The notes under the pieces: generated by a model | Database searches by the model: none | Seen by the model: only the letters and a program-made list of their open reading frames with translations | Told to the model about the DNA's origin: nothing | Shown here: positions 53,173-63,966 of the stretch, in pieces | Layout of the letters: each line of letters opens with the position of its first letter | How positions within the stretch are numbered: the first letter of the stretch is position 1 | Made by a program: the position numbers and the translations under genes | NCBI GenBank assembly: GCA_963708025.1 | Contig: CAVPSB010000015.1 | Location: 318,591 to 382,590 of the forward strand | From: an uncultured Candidatus Rokubacteria bacterium | GTDB taxonomy: Bacteria > Methylomirabilota > Methylomirabilia > Rokubacteriales > DASRDR01 | Direction: 5' to 3' | Length of the DNA: 64,000 nt

Positions 53173-56100
53173 GCCAGGTAGAGCTCCTGCCTCTTAAGGT
53201 GAGGGGCTGAGCGTCCTACGGTGCCTTCTCAGATCAACACTTTTCCCAACCGCCCGACTCCCCGGACTTCCCGGCAGAACCGGAGAAGTCACTCCGAAAC
53301 CGTCAGCAAAACGTCAGCATGGTTCGGCAGGCTCCGCGCATCCCCTTTGCCGACTCGGGATGCGCCCGTGGTGTCTGGAAAAGCCGTTGCGGATACCGCC
53401 ATGGACGAACTGAGGAGCCCGGAAACGGTCGATCCTCCAAGCGACCTGCTCGGCGCCGGCCCGTGCTGCTAGCCCGCGCCCGCGTGCTCGAGGGCGCGGC
53501 ACACGGCGCCCCGGAGACCTCCTTCCTTCTTCCCATGTGCACCGGTTAGAATGCTGCGAAGCAGTCCAAGCACACCACGCGGCCAGAAAGGTGGAGATCT
53601 CACGATGAGCGTTCACGCGTCGCCACGGTCGGTCACGGCGTCAATGCTTCCGTACGAGCGCCAGCGACTGGAAGACATCGGTTACATGACCTGCATGACC
53701 CTCACGCTTCTCGGCAACTACGCCCAGACCGGGCATTTCGGCGGCCCGCTGGCGTACACGCCGTTCAACGTCGTCACCCATCTTGCCGGGCCCGAGCTGG
53801 GCGGACTCCGCTACGACTACCGGCGCCCCAAGCATCCGTATGGCGACAGGTTCATGCTGGCGGCGGGCCACTGCGCCCCGACCTGCTACGCGCTGTGGAT
53901 GATCCTTGGCGAGGCGCTGTACCGCAGGCATCAGGCGACGGGCGACCGCCGCTACTACGTCGCGCCGGACGTCGCGATGCTCCCGATCGATGCGCTGGGA
54001 TTCCGCCGGGGCGCTGGGGCGCTCGCGACACTCCTCGAGGATCACGGTCTGTCGGACCACCCGCTGTTTGCCCAGGCCAGGGGACGGGGTATCCGGGCCC
54101 TCGCCGGGCACATCGAATCCACCGACGTCACCAACGATGTCAACGGCGGTCCGTCGGGCGTGGGCATCGCCTCCGCGGCCGGGAAGGCCGCGTTCTGGAA
54201 CATCATCGGCGCTCCCATGGGGACGCCGAAGATCATCGCGTTCGAGGGCGAGTTCGCCATGACCGAAGGGCACGCCCAGGAGCTCAAGACACAGGCGATC
54301 GCGCTTCAGGTCGGCAAGCGGCTGCGGATCTTCCTGTCCGACAACAACGCCGGCATCGACGATTCGCTGATCGGTGGCGTCGTTCCCAGCAAGTTCAAAG
54401 ACTACCGGTTGATCGACCAGTGGACCTCCTATGGGTGGAACGTGTTCTCGCTACCGGATGGCCACGACTACGACCAGATCGTGGCCGCACTCAAGACCAT
54501 GGAGGAATGGGACCCGGAGGACCGCCGGCCGATGATCGTGATCGGCACGACCACCAAGGGGTACTGGCCCGGCGCGGTGAACGGCAAGATTCCCGGGGCG
54601 GGTGACCAAGTGGTGGGGTATCCGAGCCATCCGTACGCGATGAAGATGAACTCGGAATATTTCGTCGCCCTCGCGCGAACCTTCGAGGAACGCTACGGGG
54701 TGGAGTTCTCCGGCATCCGCCAGGGCCCGGTGACCGACCCGCGCGAGCGACTCATCCAGTTCAAGACCAATATCGACGTCGCCATGTCCGTGCTCGAGCG
54801 CAATGGCCTGGGTGACTGGCTCGCCGATCACCTGGTGGAGATCGGGGATTCGGTCAGAGAGGGGATTCCGCTCCGCATCGACGCGAAGCAGGACCCATTC
54901 CTGGACGATCGTCTTCGTGTCGCCAATCTCCCCGAGGAGCCGCAGACCCTGACCGTGAAGAATTCGGTCTCGGGCGCGGAGAAGCAGCTGAAGATCGCGC
55001 TGTTCCGCAAGGCCGGCGAGGTGGCGGGTGCTCGCCGGGGAGTCTCCGAGATCGTCAAGTGGCTGAACCACGTCACGGACAACCGCGCGCTGACGCTGGC
55101 CGCGGATCTGTCGGAATCGATCAACCTGGAGCACGGCAGCATCTGGGGCCACTACGATCCCGAGACCAATCCGCTGGGGACGCGGCTCAAGGCGGCGATC
55201 CAGGAAGCGGGCAATGTGTCCAGCGCCATCGGTCTCGTGGGCCAGAGCGCTTCACTGGATCCCGAGAAGTTCGCGGGCGTGTGGGCCTTCAGCGGAACCT
55301 ACGGTGCCTTCACGCCGCTGATGTACCTGCCGGCGCGCGTCTGGAGCCAGCAGAACCAGGACAGCAAGTTCCGCACGGGCGTCCTGCACATCCTGGCGGG
55401 GCATTCGGGCCCCGAAACCGCCGCCGACGCCCGCACGCACTTCGGCATCTTCTCGCCACAGGTCTGGAAGCTGTTTCCGCGCGGCCACGTCATCCACCTG
55501 AGTTTCTGGGACTACAACGACGTGGCGCCCGGATACTTCGCCGCGGCGGAGATCGCCGCGCGCGACAAGAAGGTGGGGATCATCGTCATCGAAGTGGCGC
55601 GCCCCGACTTTCGCGTGGCCGACCGCAGCAAGTTCGCCGACACGGATCTCCGGGCCGCGGCCAAGGGCCTGTACGTCATTCGGGAGTTCGCCCCCGGCAT
55701 GCCGAGGCACGGATACGTGGTGGCGCAGGGATCGAGCTCGACGTTCAATCTGGTGAGCGTGCTGCCGCGACTGGAAGCGGCCGGCGTCAACGTGAAGGTG
55801 ATCGCGGCGATCAGCGAGGATCTGTTCGACCATCAGCCGGACGACTACCGAAACGCCGTGCTGCCGCCCGAGGCACACCAGGACCTCATGTTCGTGAGCA
55901 GCGGCACCCGGCGCATGTGGCCGCTGCGCAACGTGGGTTCGCTGACCGACGCCTACTCGCTCACGGCCGACTGGGACAATCAGTGGCTCACCGGAGGACT
56001 GGAAGCGGACGTGATCGCCGAAGCGCATCTGGATCCGAACTCGATCTTCGCCGGTGTCCAACGCTTCGCCCGGGAACGGCCGGAGCGCCTGCTCCATCAG

Positions 56101-56313
56101 CGGTCGCTGCTGGATGCGCTGGGATAGAACCGAGAGGGCGATCCATCGCCGGGCGACCATCAACTGGACGATTGCTTGGGAGTGCTGGCAAAGCGTGTGC
56201 GGCGAACCCCGTGATTTCCGTCAGCACAACGTCAGCACGGATTCGAGAGCGGCCGCGCCTGCCGCGTAACCAGTGGTAGGATGACGGCGTGAGGCGTTAG
56301 CTCAGCCAGGTAG
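53173..56313. mobile_element. Integrase-less integrative element bounded by tRNA-Lys fragments
   Basis: Direct repeat GCCAGGTAG at 53173 and 56305; tRNA-Lys pieces 53173-53198 and 56291-56313; CCGTCAGCA.AACGTCAGCA at 53300 and 56218. Confidence 0.7.
53605..56127 (+). CDS. Atypical transketolase-like ThDP enzyme
   Basis: TGHFGG, DRFMLAAGH, YGWNV, DGHD, TTKG, ADLSES, DARTH. Confidence 0.8.
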   Translation: MSVHASPRSVTASMLPYERQRLEDIGYMTCMTLTLLGNYAQTGHFGGPLAYTPFNVVTHLAGPELGGLRYDYRRPKHPYGDRFMLAAGHCAPTCYALWMILGEALYRRHQATGDRRYYVAPDVAMLPIDALGFRRGAGALATLLEDHGLSDHPLFAQARGRGIRALAGHIESTDVTNDVNGGPSGVGIASAAGKAAFWNIIGAPMGTPKIIAFEGEFAMTEGHAQELKTQAIALQVGKRLRIFLSDNNAGIDDSLIGGVVPSKFKDYRLIDQWTSYGWNVFSLPDGHDYDQIVAALKTMEEWDPEDRRPMIVIGTTTKGYWPGAVNGKIPGAGDQVVGYPSHPYAMKMNSEYFVALARTFEERYGVEFSGIRQGPVTDPRERLIQFKTNIDVAMSVLERNGLGDWLADHLVEIGDSVREGIPLRIDAKQDPFLDDRLRVANLPEEPQTLTVKNSVSGAEKQLKIALFRKAGEVAGARRGVSEIVKWLNHVTDNRALTLAADLSESINLEHGSIWGHYDPETNPLGTRLKAAIQEAGNVSSAIGLVGQSASLDPEKFAGVWAFSGTYGAFTPLMYLPARVWSQQNQDSKFRTGVLHILAGHSGPETAADARTHFGIFSPQVWKLFPRGHVIHLSFWDYNDVAPGYFAAAEIAARDKKVGIIVIEVARPDFRVADRSKFADTDLRAAAKGLYVIREFAPGMPRHGYVVAQGSSSTFNLVSVLPRLEAAGVNVKVIAAISEDLFDHQPDDYRNAVLPPEAHQDLMFVSSGTRRMWPLRNVGSLTDAYSLTADWDNQWLTGGLEADVIAEAHLDPNSIFAGVQRFARERPERLLHQRSLLDALG

Positions 56314-56426
56314 CGCGCTCCGAGCGCCATGGGCGCGGTCGCCGCTTGCCGGTCGGTTGCCCTTCGGTGGCGTGTCGTCTATGATCACCACCGCCCGGGT
56401 CGATTCATGGCAGGGGGGGAGAGGCG

Positions 56427-57842
56427 GTGACGAACCTACCGGCGGCCCACGCGCGGCCCTGGAGTCCGCGACGCTTCGGGCTCTCGCTGAAGCTCGGTCT
56501 CCTGATCATCTCGGTGCTGGCCCTCGCGATCGTTCTGGTGACAGTCCTGCTGCTCCGGCTCGAACAAGAGAGCCTCACCGCCGAGATGATGCAGCGAGGC
56601 CTCACGATGGCGCGGGATCTCGCAGGGAGCGCCAAGACTCATCTCCTCGCCAACGACGACTTGAGCCTCAGTCTGCTCGTACAGGACACGATGAAGGATC
56701 CGGACGTCGTCTACCTCGCGTTCACCGATCCGGGCGGCACGATCGTCGCGCACACCGACCTGAGCCTGATCGGCAAGTCCATCCAGCGTCCGGACGGCCT
56801 CGCGCCGGCCGGTGCGGAGATGCAGGCTCGGCCGTACACTCACCCGGCGCACGGGCGGCTCTTCGAGTTCACCACGTCGCTGAGCTTCAGCGAGGTGCCC
56901 CTCGGCGCCCTCTACCTCGGCTTCAGCCGGCGGGCGATCGACGTAGCCCTCGGGCGGGCACGGAACCAGGCGATCCTCGTCAGCGGCATCATGGCCCTGG
57001 TCGGCATCGCCGGGGCCATGACCCTCTCCATCCTCGTGTCGCGCCCCGTGCTGCGGCTCGCCGAGGCGACGCGGGCGATCGCCGCCGGCGATTATCAGGT
57101 TTCGCTGCCCGTTCCTGCCCGGGATGAGATCGGGCTCCTGACGATGTCGTTCAATCGGATGGCCAAGAGTCTCCGCGAGAAGGAGATGATCAAGCGTGCC
57201 TTCACGCGCTATGTCGCCCGCGAAGTGGTCGACGAGATCCTCAAGCATCCCGAGCGGCCGACGCTCCAGGGCGAGCGCCGCGACGTGACGGTGCTCTTCG
57301 CGGACATGCGTGGGTTCACCGCCCTCACGGAGCGGCTCAGTCCGGAAGAGGTGTTCCTGCTGCTGAACGAGTACTACACGCTGATGATCGAGACCACGTT
57401 CAAGCACGACGGGACGCTCGACCGATTCCTCGGGGATGGAGTCATGGCGATCTTCGGCGCGCCGACCGCGCACCACGACCACTCGCTCCGCGCGATCCGG
57501 ACCGCCGTGGCCGTGCAGGCGGCGATCACCGGGCTGAGCGCGGGGCGGATTCGCGAAGGCCGGGACCCGATCGCGGTGGGAATCGGATGCAGTGCGGGTG
57601 AGGTCGTCGCCGGTACCGTGGGACGGGAGGATCGGCTGGAGTATGCGGTCATCGGCGAGAGCGTCGTCCTCGCCGCTCGACTTCAGTCCCTCGCCAAGCC
57701 GGGTCAGATCCTGATGAGCCACCGGACATATCAGAATGTCGCGGGACTCGTCCGGGTCGAGCCGCTCGGAACGCTCGCCGAGAGCGGCACCCGCGAGCAG
57801 GTGGCGATCTACGAGCTACGGGGCCTGGTCGAGGCCGCATGA
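56427..57842 (+). CDS. Membrane class III nucleotidyl cyclase (TM-sensor-TM-HAMP-cyclase), metal-binding half
   Basis: FADMRGFT, DRFLGDG, GESVVLAARL; HAMP RDEIGLL. Confidence 0.9.
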   Translation: MTNLPAAHARPWSPRRFGLSLKLGLLIISVLALAIVLVTVLLLRLEQESLTAEMMQRGLTMARDLAGSAKTHLLANDDLSLSLLVQDTMKDPDVVYLAFTDPGGTIVAHTDLSLIGKSIQRPDGLAPAGAEMQARPYTHPAHGRLFEFTTSLSFSEVPLGALYLGFSRRAIDVALGRARNQAILVSGIMALVGIAGAMTLSILVSRPVLRLAEATRAIAAGDYQVSLPVPARDEIGLLTMSFNRMAKSLREKEMIKRAFTRYVAREVVDEILKHPERPTLQGERRDVTVLFADMRGFTALTERLSPEEVFLLLNEYYTLMIETTFKHDGTLDRFLGDGVMAIFGAPTAHHDHSLRAIRTAVAVQAAITGLSAGRIREGRDPIAVGIGCSAGEVVAGTVGREDRLEYAVIGESVVLAARLQSLAKPGQILMSHRTYQNVAGLVRVEPLGTLAESGTREQVAIYELRGLVEAA

Positions 57843-57853
57843 AGGGTGGGTCG

Positions 57854-59917
57854 ATGGACAGGCTCGTGGCAGCACGCGCGCTCGCACTCGGCTTGTTGGT
57901 GTGGCTTCTCGCGGCATGCGCCGCGGCGCGTCCGGGCGCGCCGGTTCCCCAGGTCCCCCCGGTGCCGGCGGTGTTCGAGTCAGAAGAGTTCGTCGTGGTG
58001 TTCGCAAAGCCCGACGACACGACCGGGGCCCTGGCCGCCAGGTTCCTCGACGACCCGGCCAAGGCGTGGATGATCGAGGAGTTCAACGAGCTCACCACGC
58101 TGACGCCGGGGCAGGAGGTCGTCATCCCGAAGCGTCCCTGGAATCCGGTCGGGGTGGAGCCGTCCGGCTACCAGCTGGTGCCCGTGCTCTGCTACCACGA
58201 TATCGGGCGGGAACCGAAGGAGAAACTGCGCATCGGCGTCAAGGCCTTCGAGGAGCAGATGCGGTACCTGAAGGCCCAGGGCTACCGCGTCGTGAGCCTG
58301 AAGGACTTCCTCGAGTTCGCCGCCCAGAAGCGGCAGCTGCCCCGAAAGACCGTCGTGCTGACGTTCGACGACGGCTGGAGGTCGTTCCGGCCGTACGCGC
58401 AGCCGATCCTCAAGGAGCTCGGGTTCACGGCGACGCTCTTCATCTATACAGACTTCGTGGGAGGGCGCAGCGCGCTCACCTGGGCGGATCTCCGCGAGCT
58501 CGCGCAGGAGGGGTTCGACATTCAGGCGCACTCCAAGACCCACGAGGACCTGCGACGCCGGCCCGGAGAGTCGGATGCGGACTACGCGCGGCGGATGGAG
58601 GCCGAGCTCGCACAGCCACGCGAGCTGATACGGCGACAGCTCGGGCTGTCCAGCGGCGTCCTGGCCTATCCGTTCGGCGCCCACGACGAACCGCTGGTCA
58701 AGCTGGTGAAGCAGTACGGGTACACGGCGGCATTCGACGTGCGGCGTCAGGGGAATGCCGCCTTCGCAAGGCCTCTCGCCCTGCACCGGAGCCAGATCTA
58801 CGCGAGTATGGGGCTCGAAGACTTCGTCAAGAACCTGAACGTCCTCAGCCAGCCCTCTCCGCCGCCGTCGATGTCGCCCCCGCCGGTGGCGCCAGTGTCG
58901 CCCCCGCTGCGCGAGCGCCTCACCGCCGAGCACCGCGAGCGGGCCCGGGCGCTGGAGCGCTCAGGACGTCTCCGTCGCGCGCTGGACGAGTGGAAGATCG
59001 CGCTCACGATCGACCCGGGCGATCCGGCCGCCCGCGACGGGCAGCACCAGCTCGAGCAGCGGATCGAGGGAGAGACCGCCCGGCGGGTCGAGCAGGGGCG
59101 CCAGGCCCTCGGACGCGGCGATCATGTCGGCGCGCGACGGAACTTCCTGGCTGCGCTCGCCCTGGACCCGCGCCAGGGCGACGCGTTCAGGGCTCTCCAG
59201 AACGACCTCAACGAGCTCCACTTCATCACGCACACCGTGCGGCCCCGGGAGACTCTGGCCGCCATCGCCGAGCGGTATTACGGAGACCGGTCGCGTGCCG
59301 AGGTGATCTGGGAGATCAACGAGCTGCCGCCGGGGGCACGGCTCGCGGCGGGGACGCCTCTGCGGATCCCGGAGATTCCCGGCGTTCCGTTCCGGGAGGA
59401 AGCGCCGGGGACCCGGGCCGAGCTGCCGAAAGACGAGCCCGCCGCGACGGGCGGCGAGCCGCGCGAGGTCAGCCCGCTCCTGGCCCTGGCCCAGGAATCA
59501 CTCGAGAAGGGCGAGTACGGGGTCGCCCTCACCGACGTGGACAAGCTCCTGGCCAGCAACGCGCAGAGCGCCGAGGGCCTCGACCTGAAAAAGGTGATCC
59601 TGTACGGGCTCGGCAAGCAGCAGCTCGACCAGCGGCGCTTCGAGGAGTCGTATCAGACCCTGACCCGTCTCACCAAGCTCGCGCCCGGCTACCAGGATGC
59701 GACCGCGCTCCTGGGGCGAGCGCGCGACCGGCTCGCCCAGCAGCATTACACTCAGGGGGTCCGGCTCTTCCAGGAGGAGCGACTCGAAGCGGCCATTGCC
59801 GAGTGGCAGAAGGTGCTGGAGTACGACCCGCAGCATGCGAACGCGAAGAAGAACATCGACCAGGCCGAGCGGCTGCTCCGAAATCTCCAGCAGCGACGGC
59901 AGCCGCCGAAGCAGTAG
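57854..59917 (+). CDS. Lipoprotein: LysM-like + polysaccharide deacetylase + TPR + LysM + TPR
   Basis: Lipobox LAAC; TFDDG, HSKTH, AYPFG; HTVRPRETLAAIAERYYG; TPR-like helices. Confidence 0.85.
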   Translation: MDRLVAARALALGLLVWLLAACAAARPGAPVPQVPPVPAVFESEEFVVVFAKPDDTTGALAARFLDDPAKAWMIEEFNELTTLTPGQEVVIPKRPWNPVGVEPSGYQLVPVLCYHDIGREPKEKLRIGVKAFEEQMRYLKAQGYRVVSLKDFLEFAAQKRQLPRKTVVLTFDDGWRSFRPYAQPILKELGFTATLFIYTDFVGGRSALTWADLRELAQEGFDIQAHSKTHEDLRRRPGESDADYARRMEAELAQPRELIRRQLGLSSGVLAYPFGAHDEPLVKLVKQYGYTAAFDVRRQGNAAFARPLALHRSQIYASMGLEDFVKNLNVLSQPSPPPSMSPPPVAPVSPPLRERLTAEHRERARALERSGRLRRALDEWKIALTIDPGDPAARDGQHQLEQRIEGETARRVEQGRQALGRGDHVGARRNFLAALALDPRQGDAFRALQNDLNELHFITHTVRPRETLAAIAERYYGDRSRAEVIWEINELPPGARLAAGTPLRIPEIPGVPFREEAPGTRAELPKDEPAATGGEPREVSPLLALAQESLEKGEYGVALTDVDKLLASNAQSAEGLDLKKVILYGLGKQQLDQRRFEESYQTLTRLTKLAPGYQDATALLGRARDRLAQQHYTQGVRLFQEERLEAAIAEWQKVLEYDPQHANAKKNIDQAERLLRNLQQRRQPPKQ

Positions 59918-59930
59918 CTGTCCGATAGCG

Positions 59931-60533
59931 CTACGGGTCGGCGTGCGTATCCAGGGTCGCGACGAAGTGATTCACGATCGCCGGGTCGAACTGGGAGCCC
60001 GCGCCCGTCCGGAGGCGATCGAGCGCCTCCGCCCGGGCCAAGGCGCGGCGATACGGGCGGTCGTGGATCATTGCCTCATAGGCGTCCGCGACCAGGATGA
60101 TGCGCGACGGCAGCGGGATCGCCTCACCGGAGAGGCCGTCGGGGTACCCGCTTCCGTCCACGCGCTCGTGGTGATGGCGGATCGCCCGGGCGATCTCGCC
60201 CAGCGCCGGCGCGCCGGCGAACGCCTCGAAGCCCCTCACCGGATGCACGCGTACCTCCTCCATCTCCTCCTCGGCGAGCGCCGAGGGCTTCCGCAGGACG
60301 TAGGCCGGTGTGGAGAGCATGCCGATGTCGTGAAAGCGGGCCGACAGCGCGAGCACGAAGCGCTCGTGTTCTCCGAGTCCCATCGACTCGCCGACGCGCT
60401 CGCAGTATGCCGCGACGCGGCCGGCGTGTCTGCGCATGTGTGCGTCCGGGCCGGGGATCGCCTCGGCGATCGCCCATACCAGCTGGAGGAGGATCTCGGA
60501 CTTCTGGCGGTCGAGGTTGCCGTTCCACACCAC
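59931..60533 (-). CDS. Stand-alone HD-GYP phosphodiesterase
   Basis: FHDIG, HHHERVDGSGYPDGL, VADAYEAM, QFDP. Confidence 0.9.
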   Translation of the reverse strand: MVWNGNLDRQKSEILLQLVWAIAEAIPGPDAHMRRHAGRVAAYCERVGESMGLGEHERFVLALSARFHDIGMLSTPAYVLRKPSALAEEEMEEVRVHPVRGFEAFAGAPALGEIARAIRHHHERVDGSGYPDGLSGEAIPLPSRIILVADAYEAMIHDRPYRRALARAEALDRLRTGAGSQFDPAIVNHFVATLDTHADP

Positions 60534-60676
60534 GGGCGATGCGGCCCTCCCTGCGCACGTTCCGGCGCGGCGCGTTCAGACGAGACTCTACTGCCACCAT
60601 GGGACGGAGCGCAAGCGCGAAGGGCTGGCCGGTGGCCCGGCGGATCCGGTCACCTTCCCGGGTGGGGTCTCCCTCG

Positions 60677-62092
60677 ATGACCATGACAACCCCGGAACCG
60701 CAGGAGCGGCCCATCCGGCTGTCGCTCAAGCTCAAGCTGAGCGCCTTGATCACTGCGCTCCTGATCCTCACCGTGGCCCTTGTCAGCACGTTTCTCCTTC
60801 GACACACCCAGCAGAGCGTCACGCGGGAGATGACCAAGCGGGGCCTGACGAGCGCTCGTACCCTCGCCAACAGCGCGCGGAGCTCGGTAGTCTCGAACGA
60901 CGAGCTCGCGCTGAGCGTCCTGGTGCGGGAAGCCCTCCGCAACCAGGACGTCGCGTACCTCATCGTGACGGACCTCGATGACAAGGTGCTCGCCCACTCT
61001 GACCTCAGTTGGGTCGGACAGCGCCTCGAGCGCCCCCGAGAGCTGACGGCCGTTCGCGATCAGCCACTGGTCCAGCCCCTCGAGGACCCCCGCCACGGCC
61101 GGCTGCTCGACTTCGCGATGCCGTTGATGTTCAGCCAGGTCCGGCTGGGGGCCCTGTACCTCGGGATCAGCCAGCGCTCCCTCGAGCAGGCCCTCGCGAA
61201 GGCCCGGACCCAGACCACCGTGATCAGCGTCGCCCTGGTCGCACTCGGGATCGGGGCGGCGGTCGCCCTTGCCTCCGTCATGACCCGCCCCGTCCTCCGG
61301 CTCGTCAACGGGACGCGCGCCATCGCCGACGGAGATCTGAACGTCACGCTGCCCGTGCCCTCGGGCGACGAGATCGGGCTCCTGACCGATTGCTTCAACC
61401 AGATGGCGCGGAGTCTCAGGGAGAAGGAGACGATCACGCGGGCCTTCAGTCGGTACGTGGCCCGGCAGGTGGTCGACGAGATCCTGAAGGACCCCGAGCG
61501 GCTCGTCCTCAAGGAGGAACGCCGCGACGTCACCGTCCTCTTTTGCCAGATTCGCGACTTCGTGCCCCTCGCCGAGCAACTGCCGCCCGAGGAGATCGTC
61601 GAGCTCCTCAACGACTTCTACGGCTTGATGATCGACGCGACCTTCGAGCACGAGGGGACCCTCAACGAGTTCTTCGGTGATGGCGTCATGGCCTTCTTCG
61701 GCGCGCCGATTCGCGACGAGGAGCACCCCCTCCACGCGATCCGGACGGCGCTCGCCATGAAAGCGGGCGTCCTCGAGCTCCGGGAGCGGCGTGCCCGGGA
61801 GGGGAAGTTCCCAATCGGGCTGGGGATCGGCCTCGACGCGGGCGAGGTGATCGCCGGGACCGTGGGCACCGAGGACCGCATGAAGTACGCCGTGGTCGGG
61901 GACACGGTCAACCTGGCCGCTCGGCTCGAGAGCAAGGCCCAGGCGGATCAGATCCTCATCACGCGCAGCACCTACGAGCGCGTCAAGGACCGAGTGGACG
62001 CGCGCTCCCTCGGCCTGTACAAGATGAAGGGCAAGCAGCAGGACGTGGAGGTGTTCGAGGTGCTTGGATTCCCCCCGCCGGGACTCGGCTAG
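60677..62092 (+). CDS. Membrane class III nucleotidyl cyclase paralogue, substrate-specifying half
   Basis: FCQIRDF, NEFFGDG, GDTVNLAARL, MKGK; HAMP GDEIGLL. Confidence 0.9.
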   Translation: MTMTTPEPQERPIRLSLKLKLSALITALLILTVALVSTFLLRHTQQSVTREMTKRGLTSARTLANSARSSVVSNDELALSVLVREALRNQDVAYLIVTDLDDKVLAHSDLSWVGQRLERPRELTAVRDQPLVQPLEDPRHGRLLDFAMPLMFSQVRLGALYLGISQRSLEQALAKARTQTTVISVALVALGIGAAVALASVMTRPVLRLVNGTRAIADGDLNVTLPVPSGDEIGLLTDCFNQMARSLREKETITRAFSRYVARQVVDEILKDPERLVLKEERRDVTVLFCQIRDFVPLAEQLPPEEIVELLNDFYGLMIDATFEHEGTLNEFFGDGVMAFFGAPIRDEEHPLHAIRTALAMKAGVLELRERRAREGKFPIGLGIGLDAGEVIAGTVGTEDRMKYAVVGDTVNLAARLESKAQADQILITRSTYERVKDRVDARSLGLYKMKGKQQDVEVFEVLGFPPPGLG

Positions 62093-62291
62093 ACTCCTCG
62101 GGGGTCTCGGGGCCAGAATACCCCGGCCATTCGGGAGGCTCCCCTGTCCTTCGCCCAAGACGAAGCAGGTGGAGCAGCGTGGTGATCATGGACGGCGATT
62201 GTCTCCGGACCAGAGCTGACCGATCAACTAGTTGCCCGCCGGACGGCGGTTGGCGAAGGACAGGGTCCGCTCCGAAGTCCTTACTCTCCAG

Positions 62292-62757
62292 CGCCGCCAC
62301 GTGGATCTCAAGGCGGGCACCCTCCGGCTCGACCCCGGCACTACCAAGAACGGGGAAGGCGGGTCGTCTACCTGACGCCCAAACTCAAGGCGCTCCTCGC
62401 CGAGCAGCTCGAGCGGGCTGATCGCCTTCGAAGACCAGCGGCCGCATCGTCCCGTGGCTCTTTCCCCACCTCCGAGGGCGCCTCGCCGGCATCCGGCGTC
62501 GCACCTTCGGCTCGGTGTGGGATACGGCCTGCGAGAAGGCCGGCGTCCCCGGCCGCATCCTGCACGACTTCCGTCGGACCGCTGTCCGGAACCTCGAGCG
62601 TGCAGGCATTTCGCGCTCCGTCGCGATGAAAATCACCGGCCACAAGACCGAGAGCGTCTATCGGCGGTACGCGATCGTCAGCGACGCCGACCTCCTCCAG
62701 GCCTCTCGGCGCCTCACGGGCATACTTTACGGGCATACAGACCGGTTCCCAGGTTGA
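62292..62757 (+). pseudogene. Tyrosine integrase C-terminal remnant, frameshifted
   Basis: LRLDPGTTKNGEG, LHDFRRTAVRNL, ITGHKT...RY. Confidence 0.85.
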
Positions 62758-62782
62758 CGGGCGCCGCGTAAGTGTGCAGAAT
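62754..62782 (+). promoter_or_regulatory. Promoter of tRNA-Lys
   Basis: TTGACG-17 nt-CAGAAT, 9 nt upstream of the tRNA. Confidence 0.6.
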
Positions 62783-62791
62783 GACGAGCGT

Positions 62792-62868
62792 GAGGCGTTA
62801 GCTCAGCCCGGTAGAGCTCCTGCCTTTTAAGCAGGGAGTCGCTGGTTCGAATCCAGCACGCCTCACCA
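62792..62868 (+). tRNA. tRNA-Lys(UUU)
   Basis: Acceptor stem GAGGCGT/ACGCCTC, anticodon arm CCTGC-CTTTTAA-GCAGG, T arm GCTGG-TTCGAAT-CCAGC, encoded CCA. Confidence 0.97.
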
Positions 62869-63362
62869 CTTCAGAATCGCGCACTTCGCCCGCCCCCCGT
62901 GTCCGATAATTCGCGGCCGCGACCGCGTTTGCTACCACTTTGCTACCACTTCGACCGTCGAGCCGGTCGACGGCGGCCTTGTTCCCCATGGGGAGCCAGC
63001 GCCCGTAGGTGTCCACCGTGAGCTTGATCGAGGCGTGGCCGAGCTGGCGCTGCACGTAGACGGGACTCTCGCCCTGCTGGAGGAGCAGGCTCGCGAACGT
63101 GTGGCGCAGCGAGTGCGGGGTGAAGTGCTCGGGCAGGGCGGCCCGCTTGAGGGTGCGCGCGAACGCCCGGCGGACGTTGGCCACCTGAAGCGGCGTGGCG
63201 GCTTCCGAACAGAAGACCAGCGCCGGCATCTCCCGCCAGCCTCGCCGCAGCGTCTCGGCCTTCCGCTCGGTCTTCAGGTGCTGCAGGACGGCCACCAGCT
63301 CCTTCGACATGTCCACCGTCCGCCCGTGCCCACTCTTCGGGGTGGCCGCTTCGCCGTCCGAC
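62798..63362 (-). pseudogene. Second tyrosine integrase remnant (5'-truncated)
   Basis: TPKSGHGRTVDM, HSLRHTFAS, LGHASI..T..TY. Confidence 0.85.
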
Positions 63363-63966
63363 AGGGCTCAACCGATTGCAGCCGGACACCAAGTGTTGCT
63401 GCCGCACTCTCCATCGCCCTCCAGGCAGACGGCATGCCGGGAAAGTCCGGATACCAAAGGACCGCCACGTGCGATGCTCGGGGCGCGATCTCCTTCACGA
63501 GTTGCAGGTATTTCCCCCATATGTCAGCCGTGACGTCGGCCGTAAGCCCCGTGATGTTTCCACCCGGCCGCGCGAGGCCGGCCACAAAGCCGACGCCTAC
63601 GGGATCGACGCCATACGTCATAATGATCGGGATCCGAGATGTTGCGTGTTTCGCGGCGGAAATGGAAGCATTGTTTCCGGCTATGATTACGTCAACGTTC
63701 AGCGCCGTAAGCTCATTGGCGAGCTCCGAAAGCCGCTCCGTCCGCCCGTCCGCGAACCTATGCTCATAGAGCACGTTCGCACCCTTTACATACCCGAGTT
63801 CCCTTAGACGTTCCTCGAACGCGCTGATGAAGTGAGACGCGCGTTCAGCCGGCGACACCGTGAGGGTACCAATCCGATACGTCTTGCCGGGTTGCTGCGC
63901 CTCGGTGCCGAGCGGCGCAGCGAGGAGGCCGGCGGTTGTCGCCATGAACGCCCGGCGGTCCATCAT
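63363..63966 (-). pseudogene. 3'-truncated ABC substrate-binding protein (PF04392-like)
   Basis: MDRRAF, LRELGYV, LARPGGNITG; breaks after RLQSVE and joins integrase DNA. Confidence 0.75.

Follow-up and report, generated by a model that had tools for sequence, protein, structure and literature searches.

Can two cyclases, each of which has lost a different part of its catalytic machinery, make up one active site between them? The question is raised by two genes, here called cyclase A and cyclase B, of an uncultured soil bacterium of the Candidatus Rokubacteria (GTDB lineage Bacteria; Methylomirabilota; Methylomirabilia; Rokubacteriales; DASRDR01). Both lie in a 64,000-nucleotide stretch of DNA (the window; positions below are counted from its first letter), which is the final 64 kb of a 382,590-base contig (CAVPSB010000015.1, positions 318,591 to 382,590 of the forward strand) in an assembly of 8.2 Mb that is 99.7% complete and 8.2% contaminated (GCA_963708025.1). 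In class III cyclases the active site is formed across the dimer interface, with one monomer supplying the two metal-binding Asp residues and the other the base-recognition pair, the Asn, the Arg and the loop Lys, as described for CYG12 (PMC2576301). Bacterial class III cyclases are reported to need homodimerisation, and the mammalian enzymes to be pseudoheterodimers of complementary halves (Beltz et al., PMC4821796). From the residue patterns and the indirect signs of co-occurrence described below, we judge with a probability of roughly 60% that A and B form an obligate heterodimer with one active site.

Cyclase A (56427..57842, + strand, GTG start) and cyclase B (60677..62092, + strand, ATG start) are paralogues, both of 471 amino acids, with 51% identity over 441 residues. 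Pfam gave the domain order sCache_3_2, HAMP, Guanylate_cyc for both (PF00211 Guanylate_cyc 85.2 bits in A and 96.5 bits in B; cut-off 21.9), and in both the Cache domain is flanked by two hydrophobic segments (approximately residues 16–45 and 178–207). By this predicted arrangement (transmembrane segment, sCache_3_2, transmembrane segment, HAMP, class III cyclase domain) A and B are membrane receptor cyclases of the HAMP-linked layout.

The catalytic residues are written below as a hexad (first metal Asp or Me1, selecting Lys, second metal Asp or Me2, second specificity residue, Asn, Arg), to which the phosphate Lys of the C-terminal KGK is added. Cyclase A reads D-R-D-A-V-R plus Thr, and cyclase B reads Q-E-D-A-N-R plus Lys. 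On the + strand of A, FADMRG (starting at 57297) carries the Me1 Asp (codon 57303-57305), DRFLGD (starting at 57420) has Arg at the Lys site (57423-57425) followed by the Me2 Asp (57435-57437), and in GESVVLAARL (starting at 57654) the Asn site reads GTC (Val; 57666-57668), with the Arg (57678-57680) kept; the second specificity site is Ala (57645-57647), the phosphate-Lys site (57789-57791), otherwise invariant, is occupied by Thr, and no KGK is present. On the + strand of B, FCQIRDF (starting at 61541) has CAG (Gln) at the Me1 site (61547-61549), NEFFGD (starting at 61664) has Glu at the purine-selecting site (61667-61669) and keeps the Me2 Asp (61679-61681), GDTVNLAARL (starting at 61898) holds the Asn (61910-61912) and the Arg (61922-61924), and the KGK (62027-62035) holds the phosphate Lys (62033-62035). 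The second specificity position of B is Ala (61889-61891), as in A, with Lys two residues before it (61883-61885). All of the motifs that a preliminary description of the locus had assigned to A (both metal Asp kept, Asn and KGK gone, Arg at the Lys site) and to B (first metal Asp gone, Asn, Arg and KGK kept, Glu and Ala as specificity residues) were thus found in place. Cyclase A is without the Lys, the Thr/Asp, the Asn and the phosphate Lys, and cyclase B is without the first metal Asp. The complete catalytic set within one chain, which a homodimer requires, is absent from A and from B, and is present only in A and B combined.

The preliminary description had also held that the replacements of Asp by Gln and of Asn by Val are not read errors, and independent sequence agreed. 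The Val codon of A is covered by Logan contigs of other runs with 0–2 differences (X1 record 2, X3 record 9), the Gln codon of B by a Logan contig of another run with 0–2 differences (X3 record 16), and Gln is also present in P0001, a separately assembled JGI protein that is 98% identical to B. Sequencing or assembly error as the source of Gln (CAG) and Val (GTC) was rejected on these grounds.

We asked whether the division of residues extends beyond this one pair. Searches with A and B in a collection of 5.8 billion proteins returned 173 database proteins, 158 of which have the canonical hexad D-K-D-T-N-R. In a tree of 65 rows (IQ-TREE quick search, LG+C20 with posterior mean site frequencies (PMSF), supports from the SH-like approximate likelihood ratio test (SH-aLRT)), the A-type proteins make up one side of a branch (8 rows, SH-aLRT 98), and so do the B-type proteins (7 rows, SH-aLRT 100). 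The A-type group stands beside a canonical subgroup (support 99), and the internal branching of one clade parallels that of the other. The exceptions to the canonical set group with A or with B, save for P0125 (D-K-D-T-N-H), which was placed in neither. Other A-type members are P0121 (D-R-D-A-N-R), P0122 (D-K-D-A-N-R), P0123 and P0157 (both D-K-D-A-T-R), and P0124, P0128 and P0129 (all D-E-D-A-T-R); other B-type members are P0001, a fragment, P0002 (G-E-D-A-N-R), P0003 (D-E-G-A-N-R), and P0004, P0011, P0015 and P0020 (all E-E-D-A-N-R). With a B-type profile, six B-type clusters scored 868–925 bits and everything else at most 768; because of this gap (868 against 768) the B-type clade is regarded as small and sharply bounded.

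Conservation in the two clades was compared over the 146 columns of the alignment in which 159 canonical proteins show an invariance of 97% or more; clade counts include the proteins of the window, and the B clade comprises seven full-length members. The A clade kept the Me1 and Me2 Asp (8/8) as well as two phosphate-loop residues, Arg and Thr (8/8), and changed the selecting Lys (5/8), the Asn (6/8) and the phosphate Lys (8/8). In the B clade, Me1 is changed in six of the seven members (Gln, Gly and four times Glu), and in the seventh the Me2 Asp is replaced by Gly; the phosphate loop is changed at Arg (4/7), Gly (3/7) and Thr (2/7). The Glu, Ala, Asn, Arg and phosphate Lys are invariant in all seven, and three replacements next to them (Asp to Asn, Leu to Phe and Glu to Lys) are fixed as well. 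The metal Asp was thus lost in four different ways in the B clade with the other half of the site unchanged. When the 79 canonical-invariant columns of the cyclase domain were split by domain half, changes numbered 6 N-terminal and 14 C-terminal in the A clade, against 17 and 8 in the B clade (Fisher p = 0.017, which is indicative only, since the rows are kin). At the level of the clades as in the window pair, the catalytic residues are divided complementarily between the partners. Orthologues of A and of B are each intact down to ~60% identity, which argues for purifying selection. Judged by these columns, the reciprocal losses are non-random and patterned, not random decay; homologues that occur singly and decay at random were not what the searches returned, the proteins instead forming two monophyletic clades with reciprocal loss and shared sources. 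A heterodimer predicts this pattern, as each subunit would be selected for one half of a shared site and its other half would be free to drift.

Co-occurrence of the two types was examined by cluster look-ups in which the source and contig size of A-type and B-type proteins were compared. The same source and an equal-size contig were found for four A-type/B-type pairs: P0123/P0004 (JGI, 44287), P0180/P0011 (JGI, 7281), P0124/P0175 (ENA, 6980) and P0129/P0183 (JGI, 13507). From source and contig size we infer that A-type and B-type genes are co-located in four further metagenome contigs. Across these four pairs and the window pair, A-A identities (60–99.8%) and B-B identities (62–98.9%) run together (r = 0.998, 10 comparisons; for example 63.5 and 64.0, 83.3 and 85.6, 99.8 and 98.9), a mirrored divergence as would be expected of pairs whose members share a genome. 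In a strain that is ~95% identical (run X7 contigs), the order is the same across all four genes of the locus.

The parent family in this genome and its relatives provides the background. Among the 54 open reading frames (ORFs) of the genome with a class III cyclase domain, the first metal Asp is missing from only one full-length domain match in the alignment, that of B; one other ORF shows His at Me1, but its match covers the C-terminal half only. In six cyclases of the genome, A among them, the Asn site is occupied by a non-polar residue or by Gly. The nearest paralogue (G000:C13:9960-11444, hereafter the C13 paralogue) is canonical D-K-D-T-N-R and is 59–60% identical to A and to B. A match to B at E ≤ 1e-60 was obtained in 38 of 61 genomes (60 related genomes and this one), mostly one per genome. 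All 29 loci retrieved from the related genomes are canonical (one of them, L076, from the unpublished genome G038), and since they are closer to the C13 paralogue (59–74% identity) than to A or B (53–61%), they are orthologues of the former. In genome loci, 65 canonical ORFs of the family were found across 76 loci, and in metagenomes 71 of 83 family ORFs across 80 loci are canonical, the remainder being mostly cut fragments; in all, this Rokubacterial family counts ~320 canonical D-K-D-T-N-R members. The metagenome scan with the B-clade alignment ran on HAMP and linker peptide patterns, and the only B-type sequence in it was on one short contig (L104, 1692 bp, EEDANR). As side observations from the same genome, ~17 of the 54 ORFs have Gln in the Lys site, Thr in the Asp site and His in the Asn site, and several stand in neighbouring pairs, for example C20:41185-42513 and C20:44988-46331, C13:523527-525815 and C13:527309-528748, and C21:17474-21268 and C21:21046-24519. 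Odd hexads include D-Q-D-V-I-R (C33:4448), D-K-D-A-V-R (C16:183259) and D-R-D-A-G-R (C13:558709).

How would such a pair work? In the proposed arrangement A would be the metal-donor subunit (C1- or alpha-like), and B would donate the base, transition-state and phosphate residues (C2- or beta-like). Since the metal-donor half is all that remains in A, and the other half all that remains in B, pairing A with B would yield a single complete site, composed of the Asp-Asp of A and the Glu, Ala, Asn, Arg and Lys of B; the second site of the dimer would be a dead pseudo-site, and A/A and B/B dimers would be inactive or nearly so. The Glu and Lys-Tyr-Ala of B would direct this site to GTP as substrate and cyclic GMP (cGMP) as product. 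Physical heterodimerisation, homodimer inactivity and product identity are in this sense predictions. The preliminary description had proposed an obligate A/B heterodimer, and the conserved reciprocal constraint at the clade level together with indirect evidence of co-occurrence makes this the best-supported reading; the reciprocal clades, the matching sources and contig sizes and the mirrored divergence all speak for it, and the words "obligate" and "heterodimer" are retained here as predictions. A wider picture would be that of a natural bacterial two-gene heterodimeric receptor guanylyl cyclase, in which two different periplasmic Cache sensors act through a mixed HAMP/coiled-coil stalk on one site, the pseudo-site being kept as an allosteric pocket; it would be an independent prokaryotic parallel to the animal enzymes and a rare dedicated bacterial source of cGMP. 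This we put forward tentatively, giving it clearly less than an even chance. In animal cyclases the forskolin site is an allosteric pocket in the degenerate pseudo-site.

The preliminary description had called for modelling of the possible dimers. For the linker-plus-cyclase parts (A 252-471, B 250-471), supplied with the respective clade alignments, the predicted complex scored 0.58 and the best of three controls 0.21. Of 80 solved complexes, 58 had passed the mark, as had 2 of 110 mismatched pairs, counts that are only roughly valid here because our own alignments were used; passes at or below 0.60 comprise only 7 of the 80 solved complexes plus both of the passing mismatches. Three prediction runs share at least 95% of contacts, and the partner confidence (pLDDT) is at least 81. 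The prediction lends weak support to A/B association. Because class III cyclase dimers are among the solved structures, the pass may come from likeness alone. The A/B model passed, then, but it is not separable from A/A or B/B.

Several observations weigh against an obligate A/B pair. The predicted complex is weak and cannot tell A/B from A/A or B/B, and A and B stand in separate operons, with a deacetylase gene and an opposite-strand HD-GYP gene between them. The sample amounts to about four independent lineages only. Four B-type relatives have Glu at Me1, which is still acidic, so that their homodimers might retain activity, and two A-type members (P0121, P0122) keep the Asn. The mycobacterial cyclase Ma1120, with Ala at the Asn site, is reported to be active, and restoring the Asn to have abolished its activity (PMC4215837); loss of the Asn alone need not, therefore, inactivate A. 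Co-location elsewhere rests on matching contig sizes and sources. P0184, a cluster mate of P0122 in which the Asn is kept and the phosphate Lys is gone, comes from an NCBI contig of 32 kb, and the window's own was the sole B-type protein from NCBI to turn up; P0184 is a possible exception to A/B co-occurrence. A genome-collection scan with P0184 gave 76 loci, its own contig not among them. The preliminary description had asked for paired degeneracy in other genomes, and it is there at the clade level in metagenome-derived proteins, but the pair was not found in the 60 related genomes searched or in 251 genomes of the phylum (E ≤ 1e-170). No B-type gene came up in the species-representative genome collection when it was searched for the B-specific peptides EFFGDGVM and EDRMKYAV; scans of the genome collection with B gave HAMP look-alikes only, with P0004 nothing, and with P0011 no B-type gene. 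The canonical paralogue in the same genome, finally, could pair with A or B.

The last point leads to the first of three other explanations, each of which we consider less likely than the A/B heterodimer. A, B or both might pair with the C13 paralogue or with other cyclases and act as modulators, either dominant-negative or product-changing; for example, a canonical chain with B would give one GTP-type site, and A with a canonical chain one ATP-type site. Such promiscuous pairing fits the 59–60% identity of the paralogue to both proteins, the 54 cyclase-domain ORFs in the genome and the placing of A and B in separate transcription units, and close cousins of a true partner also pass the complex prediction. 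However, with an intact partner at hand, reciprocal losses in clades that co-occur and co-diverge would be unneeded, and a modulator need not hold the Asp-Asp of A or the Glu, Ala, Asn, Arg and Lys of B invariant. We regard it as unlikely.

A second explanation is that A and B work as independent homodimers, A as a low-activity cyclase or one of unusual mechanism, and B as a sensor-only pseudoenzyme or, in the Glu-bearing relatives, as a homodimeric guanylyl cyclase. Ma1120 is a precedent for such an A (see above, PMC4215837), Glu at Me1 in four of seven B-type proteins would suit such a B, and the place of A in the locus is that of a canonical enzyme. In A, nonetheless, the Thr and both Lys residues (base-selecting and phosphate) are gone as well. 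B-type proteins whose Me1 is Gln or Gly, or whose Me2 is Gly, are unable to bind two metals, yet the Glu, Ala, Asn, Arg and Lys are invariant in them, which would be senseless in a dead homodimer; nor would independent enzymes account for the co-occurrence of A-type and B-type genes. This explanation appears to us no more probable than promiscuous pairing. That A and B are redundant duplicates drifting to pseudogenes, their complementarity being coincidental, would agree with the large cyclase expansion and several non-canonical hexads in the genome, with the absence of the pair from the related genomes searched and with a region lower in G+C than the genome and near an integrase remnant, but is highly improbable given that both frames are intact with all domains above Pfam cut-offs, that orthologues persist to ~60% identity with most canonical-invariant columns kept, and that the changes are patterned rather than scattered, the metal Asp having gone four ways beside an invariant other half.

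If the A/B heterodimer is real, what would be its substrate? The closest solved structures to the cyclase domain of B by sequence are those of Synechocystis Cya2 (PDB 2W01, E = 1.2e-38; identified as Cya2 in PMC5995499) and of its phytochrome fusion (6FHT). In the alignment, the Glu of B falls on the Glu of Cya2 and Lys-Tyr-Ala on Lys-Tyr-Gly; in CyaB (3R5G), an adenylyl cyclase, and in the canonical family the first site is Lys, and the second is made up of an acidic residue followed by Tyr-Thr. Guanylyl cyclases are reported to have Glu at the first site together with one of C, S, T, H, A or G at the second (PMC4215837), and the single exchange E488K in Cya2 is reported to turn a specific guanylyl into a specific adenylyl cyclase (PMC5995499). 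B carries the guanylyl signature of Glu with a small or Cys-type residue, and Glu plus Ala is found in 7/7 B-type proteins. The same Glu and Lys-Tyr-Ala were observed in a multi-transmembrane cyclase of a Deltaproteobacteria metagenome-assembled genome (L165:9176-10789, + strand) with a complete D-E-D-A-N-R plus Lys, which is a candidate homodimeric bacterial guanylyl cyclase; because the motif occurs with a full catalytic set in this unrelated protein, it looks like a working specificity signature. A point on the other side is that B has Ala three residues past the Asn, where Cya2 has a Tyr that is said to boost guanylyl cyclase activity (PMC4215837). The guanylyl prediction of the preliminary description is thus strengthened by the match to Cya2, the shared Glu and Lys-Tyr-(Gly/Ala) and the E488K switch. 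We place the odds of GTP being the substrate at roughly even, provided the heterodimer is real, and cGMP is a plausible but unproven product.

Between A and B lie two further genes. A polysaccharide deacetylase/LysM/TPR lipoprotein-like gene (57839..59917, + strand, 692 amino acids) has a start that overlaps the stop of A by 4 bases (ATGA), for which reason it is probably co-transcribed with A. It is followed by a gene for a stand-alone HD-GYP phosphodiesterase-type protein (59931..60533, − strand, 200 amino acids; Pfam HD_5 130.8 bits, HD and GYP motifs both there), which is oriented towards the deacetylase gene (convergent) and away from cyclase B (divergent). A 594-amino-acid ORF listed from 60308 as cyclase B was rejected, as it overlaps the HD-GYP gene and its extension is without counterpart in homologues. 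The ATG at 60677 is the most likely start of B, since from there the protein is collinear with A and all homologues, while the ORF from 60308 runs through the HD-GYP gene. A GGAGAGG-like ribosome site precedes the GTG of A, and a sigma-70-like promoter match (TTGCCC-17-TATGAT, 56357..56385, + strand), which is a consensus match only, stands 42 bases 5' of it; the promoter consensus search of the region gave 2 sites against 0.2 expected from shuffles. Rfam matched nothing but one tRNA in 56000-63000, and a look-up for RNA data on expression of the locus listed none. Directly 5' of A is an 858-amino-acid ORF (53551-56127, + strand) with weak matches to transketolase N- and C-terminal domains, which was beside the cyclase in 0/76 canonical loci.

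Comparison with the 76 canonical genome loci bears on the origin of this arrangement. A deacetylase homologue lies 3' of the cyclase in 66 of them (L168-L236; 59 at no less than 150 bits), and a convergent HD-GYP gene is present in 12 (L168, L170-L172, L174, L176-L178, L228, L230, L231 and L236). A second cyclase of the family was found in 0/76, extra matches being split pieces of the same gene and an unrelated 112-bit cyclase in L232. The C13 paralogue has a deacetylase homologue downstream and no HD-GYP gene. Since canonical loci hold one cyclase, in the place that A occupies, A is probably in the ancestral position of a cyclase-deacetylase-HD-GYP module and B an added paralogue beyond the HD-GYP gene. 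By its recurrent gene order, cyclase and deacetylase is a conserved Rokubacterial two-gene module, which would link cyclic-nucleotide signalling to cell-envelope or exopolysaccharide modification; the HD-GYP protein may hydrolyse the cyclase product or tie the module to cyclic di-GMP. The free tree separates the A and B clades. In an approximately unbiased (AU) test with A and B constrained to one clade (33 rows, LG+G4), the log-likelihood was 24.6 lower (p-AU 0.087), so that origin by a single duplication is neither rejected nor shown by the test.

The G+C content is 66–69% in the last 11 kb of the contig, compared with 71.2% in the genome. A tRNA-Lys (TTT; 62792-62868, + strand) lies 0.7 kb downstream of B, followed by a phage-type integrase remnant (approximately 63004-63305, − strand, matching profile positions 72-165 only) and a truncated ABC substrate-binding ORF (63274-63966, − strand), which together look like a degraded integration site. 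Because of the low G+C and the tRNA-Lys with its integrase remnant, acquisition of the region from another Rokubacterial lineage is conceivable.

How do A and B compare with known cyclases? Mammalian C1/C2 adenylyl cyclases and the alpha/beta soluble guanylyl cyclase (sGC) resemble the proposed A/B dimer, in that they are reported to have one active and one degenerate site with split roles (PMC2576301, PMC4821796). The transmembrane adenylyl cyclase, however, is one chain, whereas A and B are two separate bacterial genes, each with its own Cache domain, membrane helices and HAMP domain; and sGC consists of H-NOX/PAS subunits, unlike these bacterial Cache-HAMP receptors. The family of A and B is closest to class IIIb (Cya2, P. 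aeruginosa CyaB), not class IIIa, and the A/B pairing is predicted from sequence. Cya2 is like B in its Glu at the selecting site and in Lys-Tyr-Gly, where B has Lys-Tyr-Ala, and differs in being a homodimer with both metal Asp, a CHASE2 sensor and Tyr instead of Ala three residues after the Asn. Canonical Rokubacterial sCache-HAMP adenylyl cyclases such as the C13 paralogue share the architecture, length and neighbourhood of A and B at 57–68% identity, but have the complete D-K-D-T-N-R and one gene per locus.

A close functional parallel is an engineered one. The D300A and R376A variants of Rv1625c, each inactive by itself, are reported to regain activity on co-expression (PMC4821796), so such complementation works in a bacterial scaffold. 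As proposed for A and B, one chain lacks a metal Asp, the other lacks a transition-state residue, and the heterodimer is active. The Rv1625c pair is, however, a laboratory construct from one gene, whereas the losses in A and B are natural, affect two genes at 51% identity and are conserved in two clades. Chytrid rhodopsin-guanylyl cyclases (RGC/NeoR) are sensor-cyclases reported as exclusive heterodimers of two receptor subunits (PMC8815786, PMC12264004); unlike A and B they are eukaryotic and have rhodopsin sensors, and the likeness concerns their subunit composition.

In the literature searched, the natural heterodimeric cyclases were all from eukaryotes (sGC, chytrid rhodopsin cyclases and protist enzymes). 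A natural bacterial heterodimer of class III was not found in that literature, from which most subscription journals are missing, so that an earlier description is possible. Shenoy and Visweswariah, in their genomic surveys of bacterial cyclases, reportedly raised the possibility. If the A/B heterodimer is true, the asymmetric one-site design known from the animal enzymes can evolve in bacteria by duplication and subfunctionalisation. The pair would then offer a simple, expressible model for the integration of two different sensors by one catalytic site, and would add another candidate to the few known bacterial guanylyl cyclases.

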